A stretch of 11,605 nucleotides of DNA from Candidatus Bathyarchaeia archaeon (GCA_038882955.1 JAVZNC010000012.1:1-11605), one strand, 5' to 3'; positions 348 to 11,435 are shown, counted from the first letter of the stretch. The notes: generated by a model not told the origin, from the letters alone. Numbers and translations: made by a program.

Positions 348-688
348 AAACGTGAACCATAATTACACTTCTGGTTCTGTTAGGAGACACTAACAGAAAA
401 AATTTGATATTAACACCCATCTAAACTAAACTTACAATTAGCTCTTAGACTTGCCAAAATTTACTGGATGTTTTATGAAATTGTATGGTATACGTTATTT
501 ATATATAGAAACTAGAGTATTCTTTCAAAAAACTTATATATTCTTCAGAGTTCTTTTATGTAATGAAGATCACCAGAATACGGCAAAAATAGAAAATTAA
601 TAGTGATACTGACTATAATAATAAACATTAAAATCTTTACGAACCCTTTAAGGAATTAAAGGATTTATGAATTTATTTATTGCAATAT

Positions 689-779
689 TCGGGGAGAGAT
701 CTCCGAGATCATCTGGTGGTCTTCACCAGATGATATCTGCGGTGCGGCCTGGGGAATGACCGTGAACCAGGTCCCGCAG
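689..779. ncRNA. Candidate structured RNA (three hairpins) next to the 3' end of the RNase H-fold gene
   Basis: GC-rich island in very AT-rich DNA. Stem 689-695/700-706 has a GAGA loop. A perfect 11-bp stem lies at 708-718/724-734. A third stem is 737-742/774-779 plus 746-752/767-773 with a 3-nt bulge. G-U pairs and the GNRA loop favour the plus strand, but the strand is not proven. Confidence 0.55.
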
Positions 780-796
780 TTTGATGGGTAAAAATG

Positions 797-1267
797 TTAG
801 AGCATGTATAATTCTTCAAAAGAAGGGTCTTTTTGGCATGGGCAATGAAACCTTTTGCGGCGCAAATTTCTTGCTTTTATATGGGCCTCTTTCACTTGCT
901 TATTATAATAGTCTGGTATAAAGAGCACAGTAGGATTAGCCATTCGTGGGTTTCGCGGATAAGCGTGTTGTAGAAGTTTTTTTAAATACTTCTCAATATA
1001 GGGTTCTGATCCCTGAAAATCTTTGTCGATTATAATGGTATCTCCATCGTAAAATATGGGTGTAACTGCTTTAAAGATTAGAATTGCACATACCTTCTCA
1101 AACCAGTTTTTTGTGTTTTTAGTGCATTTTTCTAATTCGTTATGTTTCTCAACTGAAATATATATGGCCTGAGATTTTTGTCCACTTTTCTTAGATCTTC
1201 TCGCAGCCATAACCCATATAGGAGGATTTTTGACGTGCCCGCTACTATCAACCCCTATAATGGTCAC
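797..1267 (-). CDS. RNase H-fold nuclease-like protein (DUF3800 / RNase HII-like)
   Basis: N-terminal beta-strand IIGVDSSG resembles the hhDESG / GVDEAG motifs. A second acidic strand is IIIDKD, and the C-terminal helix VKEAHIKA sits where the IQxAD motif would be. GTG start 23 bp after the stop of the upstream gene. Confidence 0.6.
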   Translation of the reverse strand: MTIIGVDSSGHVKNPPIWVMAARRSKKSGQKSQAIYISVEKHNELEKCTKNTKNWFEKVCAILIFKAVTPIFYDGDTIIIDKDFQGSEPYIEKYLKKLLQHAYPRNPRMANPTVLFIPDYYNKQVKEAHIKARNLRRKRFHCPCQKDPSFEELYML

Positions 1268-1290
1268 GTTTCATCGCCGGATCTAAAAGC

Positions 1291-1956
1291 CTAAGTTCTA
1301 AGACCCGTTTTAATTTTTTTAATTAATTCTTGATGCCTTCTGCTATATTCTGTTTTATATCCTTTTTTAAGATAAATAGAAATCGCAGTCATTTTCTTTT
1401 GAGGGTCCACACGGGAGGGTATACTGGAAAGGGCCATAAAACTAATTCCAACAGGTTCTTTAGCAACAGGACCTTTAGTCAACTGAAGCGCCAACCTGAC
1501 TGCATCATTAATTGCACTGGCAGCTGCTATTAATTTCAATTTTTCCATTCTTGATAGTTTAATCAAGCAAAGTGTTAGCAACTTTTCCATTCTAATACCG
1601 CGACTCACGGTAATTAATTGCCCATCCCTGTCTGTAGTTAAAATCATTCCTTCCTCTTCCTTCTTAATACGCTCTAAAACATCTAGTTTTTTCTCTCTGC
1701 CAACCCTAATAAAAATGGCCTCCATACTTCCAAGAATAGGAATTTCAAGGGTATCAGCATATAATTCATTAACGTGAGCGTTTGCGATGTCTGTAGCAAT
1801 ATTTACTGCAGAACAAGCAAGAAAAATAGCGTCACTTAATCCTATTACATCGAATTCCTCCGCTTCCATTAAATTTCGAACAACTTTTTCCGCCAAATTG
1901 CTGACTTTCAAAGAAAGATCTTGAGGTTTTATGATTAACAGTTTATTTTCACTCAT
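1291..1956 (-). CDS. Protein with two tandem Alba-like domains (nucleic-acid binding)
   Basis: Two ~90-aa repeats each match the Alba pattern (IKARGRAISKAVD...VSTIEIAIRK): VIGLSDAIFLACSAV...MEAIFIRVGR and LIAAASAINDAVRLA...MTAISIYLKK. A basic C-terminal helix follows. TTATAT and GTGGT lie upstream on the minus strand. Confidence 0.65.
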   Translation of the reverse strand: MSENKLLIIKPQDLSLKVSNLAEKVVRNLMEAEEFDVIGLSDAIFLACSAVNIATDIANAHVNELYADTLEIPILGSMEAIFIRVGREKKLDVLERIKKEEEGMILTTDRDGQLITVSRGIRMEKLLTLCLIKLSRMEKLKLIAAASAINDAVRLALQLTKGPVAKEPVGISFMALSSIPSRVDPQKKMTAISIYLKKGYKTEYSRRHQELIKKIKTGLRT

Positions 1957-2196
1957 ACTAATACCACTTAACGACTATCTTTCACTTTTACATATAATTA
2001 TTGCTGTTATCGTGATCGCTTTAGTAACCAGTGCATAATTTTGTTAGTAACGTCTAAACGAAAACTTTTCATTAGGAAATGTGTTGGTGGCCTCGAGTTT
2101 TCCATGTTGATGATGCGACGTACACTATGTTGAAGATGTTTAGAAAGTTGGCAAGTGTTTTTGTTTGTGCGAGTTTGCGGAGGGCTCTTCTATTGC

Positions 2197-2218
2197 AAAG
2201 TAACTCTAGAGTTACTTG
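2197..2218. repeat. 22-bp palindromic site P1 (AAAGTAACTCTAGAGTTACTTG)
   Basis: 2198-2217 is a perfect 20-bp palindrome, and the 22-mer is 19/22 identical to the site at 4885-4906. Confidence 0.85.
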
Positions 2219-2336
2219 CCCATCAACATCATTTGTCGCGGAATAAAATTTGGGAAAATTGTTTGGCTTAAGTTTTCGCTCACACTCGAGCCAAAGTAGC
2301 CTAAACGTTAGATCCAGCCACACAACCCCAAAAACC

Positions 2337-2459
2337 TCAACAATAAAGCCTCACGATTCGCTTAACTTGTTCCTTGGAATAGCCTTTCTCTAAGAGTAGC
2401 CTCTCCACCTCTTTGAAGACGCTTTTTCTTAGGGCCTTATCGTTAATGTAGGAAGTCAT
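2337..2459 (-). CDS. Small helical hypothetical protein, 40 aa (MTSYINDKALRKSVFKEVERLLLEKGYSKEQVKRIVRLYC); not in the ORF track
   Basis: Translated by hand. ATG at 2459 is preceded by GTGAT. The sequence has an amphipathic helix-G-Y-S-helix pattern, and the gene diverges from the RHH gene across an AT-rich promoter region. Confidence 0.55.
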   Translation of the reverse strand: MTSYINDKALRKSVFKEVERLLLEKGYSKEQVKRIVRLYC

Positions 2460-2495
2460 TCTGTATCACATTTATCTCTTTTATCGTTAAGATAA

Positions 2496-2539
2496 TTATT
2501 ATGACAAATCTTATAAACTTTACCTTTATTATAACAGAT
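2496..2539. promoter_or_regulatory. Divergent promoter region with a TATA box (TTATAAA 2511-2517) flanked by a direct repeat
   Basis: TTATTATGACAAAT (2496-2509) and TTATTATAACAGAT (2526-2539) match at 12/14 and are 30 bp apart; a candidate RHH operator. Confidence 0.4.
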
Positions 2540-2552
2540 ATCTGTGGTGATA

Positions 2553-2699
2553 ATGCCCACGATACACGTTTCAGAAGAAACTCATACTGAACTGAGAAAG
2601 GTTAAGGGTGAACTCTTAGCCAAGAATGGGCGCGACAGGTCTTTCGACGAAGTTATAGCTGAACTAATCGCTTGTTGGAAAAAGACAAAGGAAAAATGA
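2553..2699 (+). CDS. Ribbon-helix-helix / VapB-antitoxin-like DNA-binding protein, 48 aa; not in the ORF track
   Basis: MPTIHVSEETHTELRKVKGELLAKNGRDRSFDEVIAELIACWKKTKEK fits the typical archaeal RHH pattern (TIxVSxET...SFDEVIxxL). GTGGTGA ribosome-binding site at 2544-2550. Confidence 0.8.
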   Translation: MPTIHVSEETHTELRKVKGELLAKNGRDRSFDEVIAELIACWKKTKEK

Positions 2700-2827
2700 A
2701 GGGGTCGGCTAGCTTTTTAGTTAAATAAGGGCTAGTAGTTAACGCGCCCGTTTTTCTCGGCTGACTTTTACGCCAAGCTTCCTGCTTTCCTCAGCCTTTC
2801 TCCACGTGAGACAAGGGGACTTGCTTA

Positions 2828-2849
2828 AAAGTTATGCTAGCATGACTTT
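2828..2849. repeat. 22-bp palindromic site P2 (AAAGTTATGCTAGCATGACTTT)
   Basis: Palindrome with one T/G pair. 2831-2853 is a 21/23 inverted repeat of 4070-4092. Confidence 0.85.
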
Positions 2850-2947
2850 GAGGTTGTCACGTGTGAGTTTGTGAAAGTTATCCTATGGTATTTGAGGTGT
2901 TGCCTTTAGCAACAAGCCCTGAAATAAGAATTGGGCTTTGGCCGAGA

Positions 2948-3628
2948 CTATCTCATGGATTTCAGTATTTTCCTTTGTCGCCTCCACTCTATTCCTAAAA
3001 AGGCTGTTGTTGCTGATAACACGAGAGTGGCTGCAGCAAAAGCGTATATCAAGTTCTTAGAATCACTCAAGCTTGTTTCCAGAGAGCTTTTATCCGCTTC
3101 CAGTTGCTGCCAACTGTAGAAGTCGTAGAAAGAAAAGGGTAATCTGAAAGGTATGTTTGCAATAGTCCATTCTGAGGATTCGAGATGTCTGAATTTGAGG
3201 ATTCCGTAGACGCGGATGTAATTGGGTGGGTATTCTCTGACTTTGGGAAAAACTGTGAGTGTGGTGCTAACTTGATTAGGCGAATATAATGCGTGCTCTG
3301 ATGTTAGGTTGAAGCTGTAACTGTATTCAGAGTTTAGGGGCGCTGAAATGTCCATTATTTCAAACTTGGCAAATTCGATGTATAGGTTTGGCATGTACTG
3401 GTATGGTTCATAGTAGAGAGGAGAAATTGTGAATTTAAGAGTGACATAGGAAATGTTTGTTGTGTCATAGGAATATTCAATCCACACTATAAGATCATTG
3501 ACAAGAACGTGTTCGGTTATTTCAGTTACGGGTTCTGCTTCTACAACATTTATCAGCGCTAAGCCTATAACAAGAACGCAAACGAGTATAAAAATCTGAG
3601 ATTTTCCTCTAATAACATAACCTTTCAA
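2948..3628 (-). CDS. Secreted, membrane-anchored hypothetical protein
   Basis: N-terminal signal-like hydrophobic stretch ending VEA, a beta-rich Tyr/Ser/Thr-rich middle, a short coiled coil, then a C-terminal transmembrane helix (LIYAFAAATLVLSATTAFLGI) followed by the basic RRQRK. Confidence 0.75.
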   Translation of the reverse strand: MKGYVIRGKSQIFILVCVLVIGLALINVVEAEPVTEITEHVLVNDLIVWIEYSYDTTNISYVTLKFTISPLYYEPYQYMPNLYIEFAKFEIMDISAPLNSEYSYSFNLTSEHALYSPNQVSTTLTVFPKVREYPPNYIRVYGILKFRHLESSEWTIANIPFRLPFSFYDFYSWQQLEADKSSLETSLSDSKNLIYAFAAATLVLSATTAFLGIEWRRQRKILKSMR

Positions 3629-3717
3629 GCCTTAACGCCTCATATTCTATGTTAAATCATATGTTCAAGCATAACTTTAATTAATCTTTCCGTAAATACT
3701 TCATAAAGGAATAGCAT

Positions 3718-3942
3718 ATGAAATCTCACAGCGATAAAAGCGGAAAAAGCATAGACCAAAAAATTCTTGAATATCTGGCTAAGCAAGACTGGCCCGTCAC
3801 AACAGAAATGGTTGCAAAAGAGCTTAGGGTATCATGGAACACGGCCCAACTACACCTATACAAGCTAATGGCTGATGGCATGGTTAAGGGAAGAAGGGTT
3901 GGAAGGCAAAACCAGTGGATAATAAACAGAGAAAAACGCTAA
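3718..3942 (+). CDS. Small winged helix-turn-helix DNA-binding protein
   Basis: IDQKILEYL...TTEMVAKELRVSWNTAQLHLYKLMADGMVKGRRVG is a canonical wHTH. It is divergent from the membrane-protein gene. Confidence 0.85.
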   Translation: MKSHSDKSGKSIDQKILEYLAKQDWPVTTEMVAKELRVSWNTAQLHLYKLMADGMVKGRRVGRQNQWIINREKR

Positions 3943-4073
3943 GGCTGAAAGGCTTTCCTCCCCATTTTCAAATTCCAATTTTCTCAGAGCCTTATGTATA
4001 ACTTTTCGAAAGCTTTACAGACTTCCCATAGTGCTACACTTACAAAAGCCAAAAAGCTTTAAGCGTGTGCCTA

Positions 4074-4095
4074 AAAGTCATGCTAACATAACCAA
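4074..4095. repeat. 22-bp palindromic site P3 (AAAGTCATGCTAACATAACCAA), inverted copy of P2
   Basis: The reverse complement of 4070-4092 is GTTATGTTAGCATGACTTTTAGG, against GTTATGCTAGCATGACTTTGAGG at 2831-2853. Confidence 0.75.
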
Positions 4096-4368
4096 TTGAC
4101 AGAATAACTCGTAAGCACACAAAAGCTCTTGTCTGAGCCTTTTCTGCATACTCGTCATGAATGTTTGTTTAACGCGCCTAATATTCGTAAAATAATGTTC
4201 AAGCTCTGAAAGATTCTCAGCATCACATCATCCAATATAAAGGGGAACGCACTAAATTAAGAGCTTAAAATCGAGATAAGTTTTTAGAAGGTTTTTCAAC
4301 GTTAATTTTTGGTTTAGGAAAAGCTTAAAATTTGGCCAAAAAACCATTAATTCACCAGTGAAGATTAC

Positions 4369-4902
4369 TTGTTGAAACCTCATCAGATACAAAAGATACT
4401 GAAGCTAAGAGAGGAAGGGTTTACGTTTGAGGACATAGCTAAAAAAGTAGGTGTGTCACTAAGTAGCGTCAAAAAATACCTGAAACAGAACAGACAACAG
4501 CTCAAAGTCGAGTCCGCCTTTAACCCTTCTCAACCTTTAGAAAAGGTTGACAAGTCTTTAGAACAGGTAGTTATGGAAAACCGTGCCATGATTCGCAAAA
4601 TATTGGAATTGCTTTGCAGCGATGCTGGACTCCTCAACAATCCATTGGAAGCTCACATTTATGGAGAAAACGAAGAAGAATGCATTAACTTGCTGGCTGA
4701 AGCTCAACTTGAAATGTGGCGTCACATATTCAACATCAACGCTGAACTAGGCAAGAAACTAATTCTAAAACAAAAACCCTATGAACCTTACCTAGAGCCT
4801 ATCAACGAGAAAGAAAAAGAGTATCTTGTGAAATGGATTGGTTTCGCAAAAGAGCATTGCCCAGAATTGTTGGCAGAGTTTGTTAAAGTTACTCTAGAGT
4901 AA
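4369..4902 (+). CDS. Protein with an N-terminal helix-turn-helix (Hin/sigma-70 region 4-like) and an unknown helical C-terminal domain
   Basis: QIQKILKLREEGFTFEDIAKKVGVSLSSVKKYLK. TTG start with GTGA upstream and a BRE/TATA-like GAAAAGCTTAAAA at 4318-4330. Confidence 0.75.
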   Translation: MLKPHQIQKILKLREEGFTFEDIAKKVGVSLSSVKKYLKQNRQQLKVESAFNPSQPLEKVDKSLEQVVMENRAMIRKILELLCSDAGLLNNPLEAHIYGENEEECINLLAEAQLEMWRHIFNINAELGKKLILKQKPYEPYLEPINEKEKEYLVKWIGFAKEHCPELLAEFVKVTLE

Positions 4903-4906
4903 CTTT
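4885..4906. repeat. 22-bp perfect palindrome P4 (AAAGTTACTCTAGAGTAACTTT)
   Basis: Perfect palindrome that contains the stop codons of both convergent genes (ending at 4902 on plus and 4894 on minus). Confidence 0.85.
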
Positions 4907-5877
4907 TCTATTTTAGGCGTTTGCCTTGTGCAGGAAGTATTTTCCCTACTTCTGTGCAATTGATTCCATCGGCGCCACATATTATAGATGCCGAGGTCGA
5001 TTTGCTCTGTTACAAATTCATCGCTTTCTTCCCTTTTTTTTAAGTAAAGAGGTAACCACATGTTTATGATGTCATTGGCTATCTTACTCGGAATCGAAAT
5101 TTTTTCAAGTTCCTGTATGGCTTCTTCTGAGCTAATCCTCGTTTTTTCGATTATAAGCTCTATGACATACTCAATACCTTTAGCGATAAGCTCCAGCTCA
5201 TGTGGGATTCTCTTTAGCGCCTCCCACAGCCACCTTCTCCCTTCCTCTGTTTTCAGATATCTGTGTATCTTTTGAGGATCAATTGAAATAATAAACACAA
5301 GTTTTCCTTTAAATCCCTTCTCCATCAGGATCTGGTCGATTTCGTCTTCGGCTATCTCGACTTCACCATTAAGTTGACATGGGGCTATAGGCTTGTGATA
5401 TTGTCCAGCCATACGGAGATACGAGGAGAACATTACGCATTGGATGTATCTAGCTAAGACTGATTCAGCTATATCTTGAAAGATGTAGTAGAAGCCCCTC
5501 GGCCTTAGTTCAGTAGACAGTAAATACATCACAATTGCAGGTTCTTGCACATTCTGTTTGCTCCAAAAGGCGCAATCTCTAACGAGTTTATTTACCTCTT
5601 CTTCAATAGGGTTGGAAAAGAGCATTAGCCCCTTACTTTTATAGAGGCCCTTATGCACCCTTTCTATCTCACCTCTTTTTTCCAACAAATTTAAGTCGCT
5701 AGTTATGGTCTGCCGGGATCTTCTAATCCCAGCCTCTTGTAAATAATTACAGACCTCATGAGTCTTTAATTTCCCAAAGATGTTAAAAAGAAGTTCAATT
5801 AGTTTCCGTCTTCTCTCTGTAGGATTGCGACCATCAACCTCCACATATAGCTTTTCATTTACTATACGTACTCTCAT
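4894..5877 (-). CDS. Putative transcriptional regulator: N-terminal wHTH (DeoR-like) plus an unknown ~230-aa domain
   Basis: LKTHEVCNYLQEAGIRRSRQTITSDLNLLEKRGEIERVHKGLY is a wHTH. The gene is divergent from the RHH-Rep operon. Confidence 0.7.
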   Translation of the reverse strand: MRVRIVNEKLYVEVDGRNPTERRRKLIELLFNIFGKLKTHEVCNYLQEAGIRRSRQTITSDLNLLEKRGEIERVHKGLYKSKGLMLFSNPIEEEVNKLVRDCAFWSKQNVQEPAIVMYLLSTELRPRGFYYIFQDIAESVLARYIQCVMFSSYLRMAGQYHKPIAPCQLNGEVEIAEDEIDQILMEKGFKGKLVFIISIDPQKIHRYLKTEEGRRWLWEALKRIPHELELIAKGIEYVIELIIEKTRISSEEAIQELEKISIPSKIANDIINMWLPLYLKKREESDEFVTEQIDLGIYNMWRRWNQLHRSRENTSCTRQTPKIEKLL

Positions 5878-5929
5878 TTTACATTCCTTCAGTCTTTTAG
5901 TAGAATGTAAAGTTTTGACCCTTATATAA
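5878..5929. promoter_or_regulatory. Divergent promoter: palindromic TATA box TTATATAA (5922-5929) and a 9-bp inverted repeat TTTACATTC-N16-GAATGTAAA (5878-5911)
   Basis: Read directly from the sequence. The TATA box is 27 bp upstream of ATG 5957 (leaderless spacing) and 44 bp from ATG 5877 on the minus strand. Confidence 0.6.
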
Positions 5930-5956
5930 TGCGTGGTAATGCAGAAGGATGCAAAA

Positions 5957-6184
5957 ATGGCAAATCAGATTGTAGTCAGGCTTGATCCAAGAGATAAGGC
6001 GCTTGCACATAAAGTGGCAAAGTTTAGAGGCGAAGATCTTAGCGACCTAGTTAGAAGAGCGATTAAAATGGAGCTTGCAAGACTTTCCTTCCTCAGCGAC
6101 GAAGAAAAGAAAGCCTTGGGTATTCTGGATGCAAGACCAATGTCGGAAAGCGAGAACAATAGAGGCAACGAAGGAGGTCGATAA
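5957..6184 (+). CDS. Ribbon-helix-helix (CopG-like) regulator
   Basis: MANQIVVRLDPRDKALAHKVAKFRGEDLSDLVRRAI fits the RHH pattern. ATG 5957 is preferred over GTG 5933 because of TATA spacing. It lies directly upstream of the Rep-like gene. Confidence 0.8.
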   Translation: MANQIVVRLDPRDKALAHKVAKFRGEDLSDLVRRAIKMELARLSFLSDEEKKALGILDARPMSESENNRGNEGGR

Positions 6185-6185
6185 A

Positions 6186-7127
6186 ATGACACCTTCAGCG
6201 GAAAGTGTCAGTGACAGTTATGGGCATGGAGAAAATTCCTTAACTCCTGCCGAGCGCTACATCTATACACGAGCCAAGCGCCAACCAGACGAACCGTTTT
6301 GTTTCCTAGATTTCAAGGACAAGTATGCTCATGGCACCATCCGCAACACCTTCTCCTCCTTAAGAAGAAAAGGCCTCATCAGATTGTATTGTCGGAGTGG
6401 CACAGCTTTTTATATGCTATCATCTGGAAAACCTAAGATGCCTCTTGAAAAAATGACAGTCGCCCACAGGGTGGGTAGGGGTGCAGGGGGTGTTAGGGAA
6501 GTTCGAATTGATCTTGGTTCATTTTTGGAATCGTTGGATTGGGAGGAGGTGTGTCGAGTTCATGATATTACTTTGGTTTTTCCAGCAGATTTGTTGTATA
6601 GGCTATTTTCAAGTAATGGTGTTGGGCGGTTAATAGAAGGGTCTAGTGATATTAGGTTTGGCTTATTTGTCTGGTCGAGGGGGCGTGTTCTGGAAGTTTT
6701 TCTTCATCGTGGGGGTAAGGTTACTGCTTATCTTAAGTGTAGTGAGCGTCCTGTGGAGGTTTCTCTTGATGGTCTGGTGAGTCTGTCTTCTTTCTTGGGG
6801 AGTGTTCGCGCTCGCATGGTTGATGTTGCTATTTCAGTTGACCATGATTTTGATGAACGTTTAATTCCGGACGTGCCAGATTGGGTCGTGTCGCAGTGGC
6901 ATTACGGCAAGGATGGCGATGGCGCGTGCGAAATTAGTGGTCCCGCCTTTAATGTCTCCTTCAGCAACTGGTTTGGGGACCTTGCTCGCATATACATGCG
7001 TCATAACGGTCAGCTGCTGAAGCCGCGTTTAGAAATTCACGAAAAACCGAGAAAAACGCTCCCTGTAGCCTTTGCGGAGAAGATTGATCCATCTTTCTCA
7101 GTTTTGAGTAGGCTCAAAGTTGAGTGA
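6186..7127 (+). CDS. wHTH-containing putative replication initiator (Rep_trans-like C-terminal domain)
   Basis: ATG 6186 has GGAGGT at 6173-6178 and follows the RHH stop by 1 bp. N-terminal wHTH (HGTIRNTFSSLRRKGLI). The C-terminal beta-rich domain has HD, HYGKD and RIY...RLE motifs reminiscent of Rep_trans initiators, and the gene order is copG-rep. The Rep function is an inference. Confidence 0.5.
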   Translation: MTPSAESVSDSYGHGENSLTPAERYIYTRAKRQPDEPFCFLDFKDKYAHGTIRNTFSSLRRKGLIRLYCRSGTAFYMLSSGKPKMPLEKMTVAHRVGRGAGGVREVRIDLGSFLESLDWEEVCRVHDITLVFPADLLYRLFSSNGVGRLIEGSSDIRFGLFVWSRGRVLEVFLHRGGKVTAYLKCSERPVEVSLDGLVSLSSFLGSVRARMVDVAISVDHDFDERLIPDVPDWVVSQWHYGKDGDGACEISGPAFNVSFSNWFGDLARIYMRHNGQLLKPRLEIHEKPRKTLPVAFAEKIDPSFSVLSRLKVE

Positions 7128-7205
7128 GAAGAAGGGAGGCACGAAGCGCGTGCTTCTACTCTCACGTATGGATGCTGGAGAAAACAAATGGAGGAGAAGA
7201 GTTAG

Positions 7206-8597
7206 ATGAAGGAAGTTGAGCTGAGGGATGTCATTCGGCCCGGCACAACCCGTGGTTTGGACTTTGTAATTCTGGATGAGCTGAGGAATAGTACTGGCGT
7301 GAATCCTGAAAGTGTCTTGAAGTTTGCGTTGGTTGAAATGCTCTGCAACAGCTTAGACAAGGAAGACGCCTCAAACATTCGCGTTGAAGTGCGGGCAGAA
7401 GGGGATTTCCATGCGGTTGCGGTAAGCGACAACGGCAGCAAGAAGCTGACAGCTAAGGAGTTGAAACTTATATTGGACTTTGAAAGCAAGGCTAGCTCCA
7501 AAAGAGGCTTCTACATGGTTTCTAGGGGCTACCTAGGAAATGCTTTGAAATGCATTTTCGGATATGCCTATGCACTTGCGGAGTCTAAGGAGCTTGAACC
7601 TCCGCCTGTTATGGTTGAAAGCGGAAATTACGTCTACAAGATTACCTTGAAACCCGACAAGATTAAGGAAGTCATAAACTCCAAGATTTCAGTCTCCAGA
7701 AGGGAGGATAATGGCTTCACCAAGTTTACGGTGAAGTTTCCGAGATTAGAAAGTCAACTCTCCGTTTTGAAGGATTTAGTTTTCGCCACAAGCATGGTTA
7801 ACCCCTTCAGGAAGATAACTTATGACATTTTCGGGGACAAGGGCGTTCTAGGCTCGGACGGGACGGGCAAACCAATTAGGAAAGAAACTTCAGTTTTGTG
7901 GTATACGAGCAAGCAATTCCTAGCTCTATATAGTGACTTCGTTAAAGCCACACCGAACGCTAAGCTCAAAGAGTTCATTCCCCTATTCAGAGGGTTCACC
8001 AGCAAAAAACTCATCTGGGAAATTTTGCAAGAGCTAAACGCCACCGCAAATCATGATTCTGGCGACGGTATGAATATGCAGTTTTTACCCGCTACGCCAA
8101 TTAAGGAGCTATCAGAAAATGTGATTTTAGCGTTATTCAAAATAATGAAGGCCAAGTCGAAGCCTATTGGAAAGAGAAGCATCAGGTCGGTTCTAGGGTG
8201 TGTTGGAGAAGAAGCCTTTGAGAATATTCGCAGATGCCATGGCTGGCAGAGGCTCAGATATGTTGTCATGACGGATACGCGAAGGGAATGCTGGGACCAG
8301 TTCCATTACAGTCCAAACAGCATCAGCGACAAATGCACAAACATAGATCATGTTGAGTTTCCGTATTTGGTGGAGCTTGCGATTTTCGACAGAAACGAGG
8401 ATGGGGAAGGACTTAAGGTTTACCAGTGCGTTAATTTCATGGCAAGCATGGAGGACATTTTCTCAAGAATCTTCAATATCCCATACCGTTTGGGCAGGGT
8501 GGGAATAGCCAAAGACACACCCGTAACGGTTGTCGCCCATCTCGTATCTCCAGTTTTAAAGTGGCTCAATTACGGGAAGAGTGGTTTAGGTGAGTAG
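7206..8597 (+). CDS. Topoisomerase VI subunit B-like GHKL ATPase (type IIB, Topo VIII-like B part)
   Basis: Bergerat motifs EMLCNSLD, VSDNG, SRGYLGNALK and NGFTKF. The C-terminus VVAHLVSPVLKWLNYGKS is transducer-like and includes the switch lysine. GGAGG ribosome-binding site upstream. Confidence 0.8.
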   Translation: MKEVELRDVIRPGTTRGLDFVILDELRNSTGVNPESVLKFALVEMLCNSLDKEDASNIRVEVRAEGDFHAVAVSDNGSKKLTAKELKLILDFESKASSKRGFYMVSRGYLGNALKCIFGYAYALAESKELEPPPVMVESGNYVYKITLKPDKIKEVINSKISVSRREDNGFTKFTVKFPRLESQLSVLKDLVFATSMVNPFRKITYDIFGDKGVLGSDGTGKPIRKETSVLWYTSKQFLALYSDFVKATPNAKLKEFIPLFRGFTSKKLIWEILQELNATANHDSGDGMNMQFLPATPIKELSENVILALFKIMKAKSKPIGKRSIRSVLGCVGEEAFENIRRCHGWQRLRYVVMTDTRRECWDQFHYSPNSISDKCTNIDHVEFPYLVELAIFDRNEDGEGLKVYQCVNFMASMEDIFSRIFNIPYRLGRVGIAKDTPVTVVAHLVSPVLKWLNYGKSGLGE

Positions 8598-9921
8598 TAG
8601 CATAAGCGTGTTGATGGAAAAGGCGTTCGACAAAGTTCTTCCCATACCTAAGACACCGCGGATTTACACTCCTCCGCCGCCGCATAAGCCCGTCTCATGG
8701 GTTCCGCATGGAAGGCTTGGAAACCGAATGTATGAACGAAGGCTTAGGGACTTTGCGAGGGAAATATCAGCGATAGACGCTCAGGTGGTTAAACGCGTAA
8801 AATACTCCAGCCGGGGCTGGTGCTACCTGCTTGAAGGCCTTGGAAAAATCACCAAAGACGAGTTTGACGCTTGCCAAAAAGCGATAAACGACTGTAGAAA
8901 GATTGGGTTGTTACCCATAGACTTCGTTGCTGAAGATCAAGACATGACGAGACGTTTTATGGGAATCCATGAAGCTGCGGACCCAACAGCTCTACTTGAA
9001 CGTATCAAGAAATGTGTAGAGGACATGCTTAACAAATTACCTTCACTCACAACGGACTTTTGGGATGGCGAAGAATACTACGTTATGATGTGCGTGGAGA
9101 AAGGTGACATTCTAAACCTCTTCAAGCCAATATGCGACGAATACCACGTTCCCATAGTCAACAGCAAAGGGTGGCCGCCGATACTTTTGAGGGCGCACAT
9201 AGCGGGACTCTCCCAAAGGGCTGAAATGAGAGAATTAACACCTGTGCTACTCCTATTCTACGACCACGATCCAGCAGGCCTAAAAATTTCAGAAACCTTC
9301 AGAAAGAACCTTGAAGACTGTGCAGGCGGAACAGGCTGGTATCCATACAACCTGATAATTGACAGGTTCGGGCTTAATAAGGAAGATATAGACCGCTACA
9401 ACCTAACATGGATTGAAAACCTTAAAACCAGCTCTGGAAGAGAATCGCTTGACTATAATTATATTGGCAAGTTTGGAAGACGAAAGTGCGAGTCCAACGC
9501 ACTGTTCAAGAACGACGAAACGCTCAAAGCAGCCGAAGAAATCTGCAGAAAAGCCATAGAAAAATACTACGGAAAAGACGCTTTGAAGCGATTCGCAGCG
9601 AAAGTGGAAAATTCAAGAGGCAAGTTGGGGATAGTCTACGAGTCGCCAGTTCTAAAAAACTTCAATGAGGCAATGGATGAGCTGATTCAACGTTTAGCCC
9701 AGCCCAAACCGGAGCCAGAAACAGAACATCCACCCCAGCCACCCGCAAGAGAAAAAGAGGTCGTAGTTGAAGTTGACAACAAATACTACGGCAGATGCCC
9801 AAAATGCCATACACAATTCAATTATGGCACTTCAGACGTCGGCAAACTTGTAAGGTGTAGATTGTGCAACCTTCCCATGAGACTCAAATGGAAACCAGGA
9901 GCTGAGCCGCTTAATGGCTGA
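8590..9921 (+). CDS. Topoisomerase VI subunit A/Spo11-like (Mini-A/Topo VIII-like) TOPRIM protein with a C-terminal Zn ribbon
   Basis: SSRGWCY matches the RxxYY-type motif (candidate catalytic Tyr79). TOPRIM motifs are CVEK and YDHDPAG, with a later ESNAL motif. A Pro-rich linker leads to CPKC...CRLC. The gene overlaps both neighbours by 8 bp. Confidence 0.8.
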   Translation: MSSSISVLMEKAFDKVLPIPKTPRIYTPPPPHKPVSWVPHGRLGNRMYERRLRDFAREISAIDAQVVKRVKYSSRGWCYLLEGLGKITKDEFDACQKAINDCRKIGLLPIDFVAEDQDMTRRFMGIHEAADPTALLERIKKCVEDMLNKLPSLTTDFWDGEEYYVMMCVEKGDILNLFKPICDEYHVPIVNSKGWPPILLRAHIAGLSQRAEMRELTPVLLLFYDHDPAGLKISETFRKNLEDCAGGTGWYPYNLIIDRFGLNKEDIDRYNLTWIENLKTSSGRESLDYNYIGKFGRRKCESNALFKNDETLKAAEEICRKAIEKYYGKDALKRFAAKVENSRGKLGIVYESPVLKNFNEAMDELIQRLAQPKPEPETEHPPQPPAREKEVVVEVDNKYYGRCPKCHTQFNYGTSDVGKLVRCRLCNLPMRLKWKPGAEPLNG

Positions 9922-11335: not shown

Positions 11336-11362
11336 CGCGGCTGTCTGTGGGTGGCGCGTAAA

Positions 11363-11435
11363 AGCCGGGGGTGGGAGTTGAACCCACATATAGCTGCTCT
11401 GCAGGCAGCCGCCTGAACCGTTCGGCCACCCCGGC
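11363..11435 (-). tRNA. tRNA-Cys (GCA), intronless, CCA not encoded; probable integration target
   Basis: Reverse complement gives acceptor stem GCCGGGG/CCCCGGC, anticodon arm GCTGC-CTGCAGA-GCAGC, T arm GTGGG-TTCAACT-CCCAC and the U73 discriminator typical of Cys. Confidence 0.97.

Follow-up and report, generated by a model that had tools for sequence, protein, structure and literature searches.

Candidate recombination joints in an ordered array of dyad-symmetric sites bordering small gene modules at a Bathyarchaeia integrated element

Why should short, nearly identical palindromes recur between the small gene modules of an archaeal integrated element? The question is raised by an 11,605-nucleotide (nt) stretch of DNA, hereafter the window, from a Candidatus Bathyarchaeia archaeon (GCA_038882955.1 JAVZNC010000012.1:1-11605), in which an earlier note had described four palindromes, P1 to P4, as two nested pairs that divide the cargo of an element into cassette-like units. 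In our best explanation, P1-P4 are the last members of an ordered array of dyad-symmetric sites bordering small self-contained modules. The array begins 1.3 kb to the left of the window, and in the source genome (G000; 28 contigs, 74% complete) its series runs through hairpins A, B, C and D to P1 (158 nt past D), P2, P3 and P4, and then to the element backbone, the integrase gene and tRNA-Cys (Table 1). The earlier note had covered part of this system, omitting a degenerate site at 2874-2895, a half-site at 3668-3678 and the hairpin array left of the window; we regard the larger ordered hairpin array as the more important result. With regard to function, we tentatively prefer to regard the P sites and hairpins together as recombination joints for cassette exchange that would also act as 3'-end stops, a reading to which we give a little less than an even chance.

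At both 375-398 and 2039-2062, the breakpoint is a 24-nt hairpin. These hairpins follow the pattern TTCYGTTAR-N6-CTAAYRGAA, have inverted 9-bp arms and fall into four classes by their 6-nt centres, i.e. A (CAGCGA), B (CGATGA), C (GAGACA) and D (TAACGT). The centres are invariant within each class across genera, and the stems vary on both sides together (TTCCGTTAG/CTAACGGAA, TTCTGTTAG/CTAACAGAA, TTCCATTAA/TTAATGGAA). The class C hairpin at 375 has a perfect 9-bp stem and a predicted RNA fold of -11.4 kcal/mol (z -2.6); class C hairpins, with at most two mismatches, occur in 27 of 150 family genomes and not at all in the reversed control. With one mismatch, the general pattern is found in 77 of 331 family genomes, in up to 37 copies, the reversed control giving almost none. 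There are further centre classes: in G174 and G246 A is preceded by CTGCAA, and in G265 D is followed by TTCGTA and ATAATG.

The order of the classes is fixed. We examined the arrays of G000 and of G331 and G389, which belong to two other genera, along with 12 regions hand-picked where the listed hairpin matches clustered; all 13 arrays that contain two or more classes, drawn from 12 genomes, read A-B-C-D on one strand, at hairpin spacings of 0.3 to 6.3 kb. In G331 the array reads A, B, C, D, P1, ordered and oriented as in G000, with a D hairpin that has a perfect stem and the same TAACGT centre; the G389 array reads A, C, D, P1. The hairpins stand out as sharp islands, with unlike sequence right up to their edges, and the cargo between them is largely unrelated: when open reading frames of at least 60 amino acids (aa) were compared at E 1e-6, there were two shared-protein pairs among nine A-B intervals and none among nine B-C or four C-D intervals. 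In G389 the C-D interval is occupied by four different small genes. The homology of the same-genus genome G254 to G000 (97-99%) stops right after hairpin C, and that of G327 stops at the host stop codon before hairpin A.

With respect to the P sites, all four sequences are where the earlier note had placed them, and its description of them as related palindromes is borne out for P1, P2 and P4, which are self-complementary at 20/22, 20/22 and 22/22 positions, with a perfect 20-bp palindrome inside P1 at 2198-2217. It does not hold for P3, which at 12/22 is not palindromic by itself; a repeat search, flanks counted, aligned P3 with P2 at 84% directly over 25 nt and at 91% inverted over 23 nt, and P3 is best regarded as a decayed copy of P2. 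The symmetric differences between sites are likewise as described, at positions 6/17 for P1 versus P4 and 8-9/14-15 for P2 versus P4. The centre TCTAGA is shared by P1 and P4 and GCTARC by P2 and P3, and both P1 and P4 read GTWAC-TCTAGA-GTWAC, the 5-6-5 core layout of the A-D hairpins. The degenerate site at 2874-2895 (self-complementarity 10/22) has the flank GAGTTTGTK in common with P4 and is 81% identical to 4876-4901 over 26 nt.

The motif is rare. A degenerate consensus with at most three mismatches recovers P1, P2 and P4, the shuffle mean being 0.01 and 0/200 shuffles reaching three, and a scan of the whole 1,016,344-base genome with at most two mismatches finds these three sites only (reversed control 0). 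The palindromes are specific to the inserted DNA and not dispersed through the host, as the earlier note's reading had implied. Nine perfect palindromes of at least 18 bp exist in the genome, P1 and P4 among them, P4 being the longest.

The placement of the P sites is also regular, and bears on an alternative in which they are operators for an element-encoded dimeric ribbon-helix-helix or helix-turn-helix protein, the core classes CTCTAGAG and TGCTAGCA reflecting two proteins or two affinities. Dyad symmetry through the centre is typical for homodimer sites, the window region is dense in small DNA-binding proteins of these two types, the P2-type half-site at 3668-3678 overlaps the likely promoter of the winged-helix gene, and the half-site AAAGTYATG occurs in seven copies in 16.6 kb against 0.57 expected. 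We nevertheless consider operators improbable. All four P sites lie at or past gene 3' ends and not in promoters, as the earlier note had stated, with P2 and P4 between convergent genes and P4 providing the stop codons of both 4369-4902 (+) and 4894-5877 (-). They stand 200-300 bp from the nearest downstream start, and the approximately 200 bp upstream of start codons contain none of the four full sites and only the half-site at 3668-3678. Moreover, P1 is present in G331, which has no DNA-binding protein in common with G000 (the ribbon-helix-helix proteins adjoining the P sites of the two genomes have no similarity), and three of the extra AAAGTYATG half-sites lie left of the window, in DNA shared with G254.

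Comparison with related genomes supports P1 as a border. In the 401 genomes of the order and the whole genome collection, the exact P1 core was found elsewhere only in G331 and G389. G331 carries an element at the same tRNA-Cys site, with an integrase that is 94% identical and integrase and att region DNA that is 93.5% identical; between the recombinase genes, the likeness of G331 to G000 is limited to a 30-nt island around P1 (window 2188-2217), which is 29/30 identical, each neighbouring 30 nt matching at only 5-9/30. Clear protein matches are limited to the two recombinases, the next best being a ribbon-helix-helix pair at E 0.038. The homology with G389 covers 522 bp (2039-2560), to the end of its contig, at 98.7%, with P1 100% identical; it begins sharply at 2039, the first base of hairpin D and 158 bp from P1, and not at P1 itself. 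The earlier note had asked whether gene content changes at the P sites; for P1 and P2 such a change is seen in the P1 island in G331 and in a P1-to-P2 joint from run X7 described below, and it is not seen in the G389 break at 2039. The cassette-border reading is supported for P1 and P2. Of seven differences from G389, six fall within 90 nt past hairpin D and one within the 430 nt that follow, a distribution that suggests a further mosaic boundary near 2130.

Beyond these genomes, G344 has a 19/20 match to P4 in a non-coding gap between convergent genes, with about 0.08 expected by chance on our own arithmetic, and we count it as no more than a possible P-type site. Other near matches in the order, with one or two mismatches, were set aside as chance, being mostly inside conserved host genes or as frequent as in the reversed control. 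Exact P1/P4 cores in two bacterial records, one viral contig and seven metagenome contigs were likewise put down to chance, their composition and homology being unrelated. No P-like palindrome was found at 10 loci with more distant integrases (42-54% identity).

Contigs from four other hot-spring runs were mapped on the window; assembled contigs drop rare forms, and window parts that are uncovered by contigs in X6 and X7 are no evidence of absence. Among the joints listed are four, each of them a deletion with its ends at or near the edges of hairpins or P sites (Table 1); they are evidence that such forms occur, and say nothing about their origin. The same joints bear on the proposal of the earlier note that P1/P4 and P2/P3 are partners, recombined by the integrase, XerA or the topoisomerase-like proteins to invert or excise modules. 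The matching centres, TCTAGA and GCTARC, and the 8-6-8 layout, which is like that of tyrosine recombinase core sites, are consistent with such pairing, but we rate it as very improbable. Among the joints listed from contigs of the four runs there is no P1/P4 joint, no P2/P3 joint and no inversion or other strand switch, and the sole P joint connects P1 with P2. In addition, P3 is decayed, G331 has P1 without any P4 partner, and the att site of the 473-aa integrase has no resemblance to the P sites.

The earlier note's choice of enzyme is not supported. Besides the 473-aa integrase, the element has a second tyrosine recombinase, a 313-aa Xer-like protein with a SAM-like N-terminal domain that is encoded at G000:C2:111095-112036, directly past the second copy of the 42-bp att repeat. 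With the archaeal XerA model (cut-off 220) the 313-aa protein scores 53.9 bits and the 473-aa protein 81.6 bits, the XerC and XerD scores being lower; with the integron-integrase model TIGR02249 (cut-off 265) the 473-aa integrase scores 63.6 bits, and this model is not among the matches of the 313-aa recombinase at E <=0.001. Both proteins lie far below the XerA and integron cut-offs, and rank as generic recombinases by the curated models.

The 313-aa Xer-like recombinase is the leading candidate for the acting enzyme, judging from its gene and distribution. A 79% identical homologue is encoded at the far end of the G331 element, and close homologues are present in 38 of 331 family genomes; 25 of the 38 are also hairpin-positive, against 8.8 expected, in a tabulation that was made by hand and is confounded by relatedness. 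The homologues are often multicopy, broken by stops or at contig ends. G389 has 26 Phage_integrase matches and also the most hairpins.

The sharp islands of 24-30 nt, the class-specific centres, the fixed order and orientation and the deletion joints at site edges fit, in combination, a spacer-dependent tyrosine recombinase. In the reading that we prefer, the sites would be targeted by such a site-specific enzyme, most likely the 313-aa protein, and the class-specific centres would restrict each junction to exchange with its counterpart in another array. A pair of exchanges, at different junctions of co-resident arrays, could then replace, insert or delete the intervening cargo, with the order kept. 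The sites, which have stops in two of the three frames of either strand and a modest 9-bp hairpin followed by T3-4, would probably double as two-way transcription and translation stops between modules; a stop or terminator role and a recombination role can coexist. An exchange between a chromosomal and an element-borne array could also account for the joining, in G000, of host regions that a relative has 170 kb from each other. On G000 contig C1 the array and element connect the FrhB/CBS region to tRNA-Cys over a distance of 13 kb, and in G327:C2 the two are separated by about 170 kb and oppositely oriented; either the array mediated a rearrangement or the bin contains a mis-join. A more elaborate version, which we think possible but on the doubtful side, is a natural ladder for cassette exchange, ordered and co-oriented, with shared arms and mutually incompatible centres (CAGCGA, CGATGA, GAGACA and TAACGT, then TCTAGA and GCTAGC), on which an Xer-like recombinase swaps the cargo of individual rungs between chromosomal and element arrays. 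Such a ladder would be nature's version of multi-site recombinase-mediated cassette exchange and would stand apart from integrons.

Several observations weigh against recombination at the sites. The P1-P2 joint connects neighbours of unlike centre (TCTAGA versus GCTAGC) with its breakpoint at the site edge and not in the spacer, and it retains the whole of P1, and thus involves no crossover within the site centres. The forms that lack the C-D cargo retain both hairpins, so that insertion at a single site does not explain them. Each joint is a single assembled contig with short sides (22-34 nt), no recombination product having been seen directly, and the joint contigs may reflect variants standing in relatives instead of recombination events. 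A recombinase would obtain no directional cue from the P sites, whose centres are palindromic. P-type sites were found in only three genomes, along with the 19/20 match in G344; the comparative support extends to P1 and P2 and not to P3 or P4, and the generic layout GTWAN-N6-NTWAC is not enriched genome-wide (six sites versus nine in the reversed control). Many hairpin-rich genomes, e.g. G174, G246, G250 and G483, have no close homologue of the 313-aa recombinase. The predicted partner junction of the 170-kb rearrangement is absent from the 74% complete G000 assembly, in which the sequence of G254 beyond hairpin C has no match. Finally, all of the genomes are metagenome bins. The sites, their rarity and placement, the islands of identity, the kept order with unlike cargo and the deletion joints at site edges are shown; site-specificity of the recombination, the acting enzyme and the terminator role are matters that we infer, since the evidence is comparative and comes from such bins.

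A further point of this kind is that lone class C hairpins are found past host genes such as ftsZ, between convergent genes, where they fit a plain 3'-end signal. This leads to the most substantial alternative, that the sites are passive linkers, i.e. 3'-end hairpins that stop transcription or bind an RNA or DNA factor, some with a conserved promoter behind them, the cargo being exchanged by general or microhomology recombination over the conserved 24-34 nt as the sole sequence in common. All sites lie past gene 3' ends, A, B and C being 24-28 nt after stops, and the dedicated enzyme is only a candidate. The P hairpins have T3-4 at the end on both strands. As + strand RNA, P2 is predicted to fold with its stem lengthened into the flanks by G-U pairs (-14.5 kcal/mol, z -3.35), with no fold predicted for the - strand; the predicted folds of P4 are at -7.6 and -7.7 kcal/mol, and P3 has no stable predicted fold. 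G000 and G331 have about 45 nt after hairpin A in common, with a TATA-like run.

Other features limit the passive-linker explanation. A terminator needs neither an exact 6-nt loop across genera nor a fixed order of loop classes, the sharp islands of 24-30 nt are at or under the usual minimum for homologous exchange, and P1, P2 and P4 are symmetric through their CTAG centre, which is not required of a hairpin loop. The G+C-rich stem and T-run of an intrinsic terminator by bacterial criteria are not seen at the P sites, the stems of which are A+T-rich (-7.6 to -14.5 kcal/mol) with T3-4, and a scan of 1800-5200 by those criteria gave a single candidate, which lies at 3338 and not at a P site. Archaeal termination chiefly requires longer oligo-T runs. 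Rfam has no known RNA family over the sites. Overall, we regard passive linkers as possible, though rather unlikely, and continue to prefer recombination joints. The stretch of about 45 nt downstream of hairpin A is conserved in G000, G331 and G389 and ends in the TATA-like run TTTTATATTT; the junction unit at hairpin A may, from this conservation, carry a promoter for the next module.

If the sites are recombination joints, the array would work most like the integron and pdif systems and engineered heterospecific cassette exchange. In integrons, attC sites span roughly 55-140 nt when folded, forming long imperfect hairpins with R''/L''/L'/R' boxes; the sites here are 22-24 nt, perfect or near-perfect palindromes or hairpins. 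The array has ordered, distinct classes, attC sites being without such order, its cargo-less forms retain both flanking sites, and no IntI is present by score (63.6 bits versus 265). The P1-P2 joint, at a site edge, resembles the boundaries of attC cassettes. According to Ghaly et al. (2022; PMC9668308), the IntI of archaeal integrons is a tyrosine recombinase with an IntI-specific additional domain, attC must fold as a single strand, and tandem short open reading frames, for the most part in one orientation, are interspersed with the sites. The likeness to integrons lies in short modules with hypervariable cargo, punctuated by imperfectly conserved palindromic sites just past the genes. In the window, sites alternate with short open reading frames, two modules being divergent pairs and one lying on the opposite strand. 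The array is not an integron.

Nor, by the features compared, is it an Xer/pdif system. Xer/dif and pdif sites are 28 bp, with 11-bp arms and a 6-bp centre, and pdif modules are bounded by oppositely oriented sites. The inverted arms, 6-nt centre, small bounded modules and Xer-sized recombinase in the element are reminiscent of XerA-dif and of the pdif modules of Acinetobacter plasmids; the differences are the 8-9 bp arms, the several centre classes in fixed order, the co-orientation, rather than alternation, of all hairpins of an array, and the recombinase score of 53.9 bits against the XerA cut-off of 220. Engineered recombinase-mediated cassette exchange employs heterospecific lox or FRT variants, with the same arms and incompatible centres, such that swaps retain order. 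The array shares with it the inverted arms, class centres, order and orientation and exchangeable cargo, as structural features alone; one is a laboratory design and the other a natural case known from sequence. We know of no natural counterpart of heterospecific cassette exchange.

Other repeated motifs are less similar. Sulfolobus conjugative plasmids, also archaeal mobile elements, have dispersed short inverted-repeat motifs at the borders of variable regions, where rearrangements start and stop; these are of one type and are not known to form ordered classes. REP/BIME-RAYT elements resemble the hairpins in being short, in many copies, past genes and between convergent genes; they differ in that dispersal is not seen for the P sites, nothing among REP elements parallels the ordered classes, and a Y1 transposase (PF01797) was found in 0/4 genomes searched (completeness 74-94%). 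A genome-wide REP-like element was ruled out for the P sites, the P motif being found only in the window. Our literature search found no paper containing the hairpin or P1 sequences.

If the sites are recombination joints, the array would constitute a second, independent archaeal way to build cassette arrays, with order set by site classes, in contrast to integrons, which use one generic site. It could explain how small defence-like or regulatory modules are shuffled in the poorly known elements of Bathyarchaeia, and might supply genetic tools with recombination sites that are thermophilic and mutually orthogonal. Should the sites be only standard 3'-end linkers, their exact conservation across genera, in fixed order and with unrelated cargo, is unusual nonetheless.

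Table 1. Sites, modules, backbone genes and joints of the array and integrated element, in window numbering (negative values lie left of the window)
Feature	Position	Strand	Remarks
Class A hairpin, CAGCGA	-1335		28 nt past stop of host FrhB/CBS-type gene
Class B hairpin, CGATGA	-391		
Class C hairpin, TTCTGTTAG-GAGACA-CTAACAGAA	375-398	+	28 nt past stop of gene ending at 347
Cargo between hairpins C and D	797-1956	-	Two genes, 797-1267 and 1291-1956; no family match
Class D hairpin, TTTTGTTAG-TAACGT-CTAAACGAA	2039-2062	+	Degenerate copy, folding lost
P1 palindrome, AAAGTAACTCTAGAGTTACTTG	2197-2218	.	P1 unit is 2188-2218, with conserved left flank ATTGC
Module P1-P2	2337-2699		40-aa gene 2337-2459 (-) and ribbon-helix-helix gene 2544-2699 (+), divergent
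P2 palindrome, AAAGTTATGCTAGCATGACTTT	2828-2849	.	Between convergent genes
Degenerate P-like site	2874-2895 (entry 2865-2895)	+	Left flank as P4
Module P2-P3	2948-3942		Membrane protein gene 2948-3628 (-) and winged-helix gene 3718-3942 (+), divergent
P2-type half-site, AGCATAACTTT	3668-3678		Promoter region between divergent genes 2948-3628 and 3718-3942
P3, decayed P2 copy	4074-4095	+	Centre CTAA; 12/22 self-complementary
Module P3-P4	4369-4902	+	177-aa protein, N-terminal resolvase-type helix-turn-helix (HTH_7, 1.2e-07)
P4, perfect 22-bp palindrome, AAAGTTACTCTAGAGTAACTTT	4885-4906	.	Contains stops of both convergent genes
Element backbone genes	4894-9921		Five proteins, next five rows
AbiEi-like winged-helix protein	4894-5877	-	
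Ribbon-helix-helix protein	5933-6184		
Unknown 313-aa protein	6186-7127		
GHKL ATPase-like protein	7206-8597		
Topoisomerase-like protein	8590-9921		phrog_6247 DNA topoisomerase, 4.9e-50
Tyrosine integrase, 473 aa	9914-11335	+	N-terminal zinc ribbon; Phage_integrase 3e-19
attR	11346-11435	-	42-bp repeat 11346-11387, overlapping 3' part of tRNA-Cys 11363-11435
Joint, run X7	2217 to 2847		Whole P1, then right edge of P2; 40-aa/ribbon-helix-helix module absent
Joint, run X2	2064 to 2183		End of hairpin at 2039 to start of P1 unit
Joint, run X2	398 to 2035		Hairpin C (375) to hairpin D (2039); two genes between absent
Joint, run X5	400 to 2044		Hairpin C to hairpin D; two genes between absent

The modules themselves have few recognisable relatives. 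The two genes between hairpins C and D have no Pfam, PHROG, PADLOC or NCBIfam match, the proteins of the P1-P2 module have weak VapB-like and DUF7557 matches, and the membrane protein of the P2-P3 module has no relative in the genome contig collection. The 177-aa helix-turn-helix protein has no catalytic domain, and a search of 330 family genomes at E 1e-5 gave no homologue.

With regard to the integrated element, the second copy of the 42-bp att repeat is on another contig (G000:C2:110998-111039), none having been found on the window's own contig, and a second copy is absent from the G331 assembly. The same-genus genome G282 represents the empty site, because in it the DNA that borders the second att copy directly adjoins tRNA-Cys. 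In the backbone, the GHKL ATPase-like gene overlaps the start of the topoisomerase-like gene (window 7206-9921), and the element seems to carry, in these two, a split type IIB topoisomerase-like pair.

At 690-790, inside an A+T-rich spacer, the window has a G+C-rich stretch with a perfect 11-bp stem and 5-nt loop at 708-734, which has no Rfam match and may be a small structured RNA. The window also differs from the genome in its short motifs: GATC is strongly avoided genome-wide (observed/expected 0.19, 0.72 per kb) and occurs at 25 sites in the window (2.15 per kb), three times as densely, and GGCC is about twice as dense in the window as in the genome, densities that would fit a foreign origin of the window DNA.

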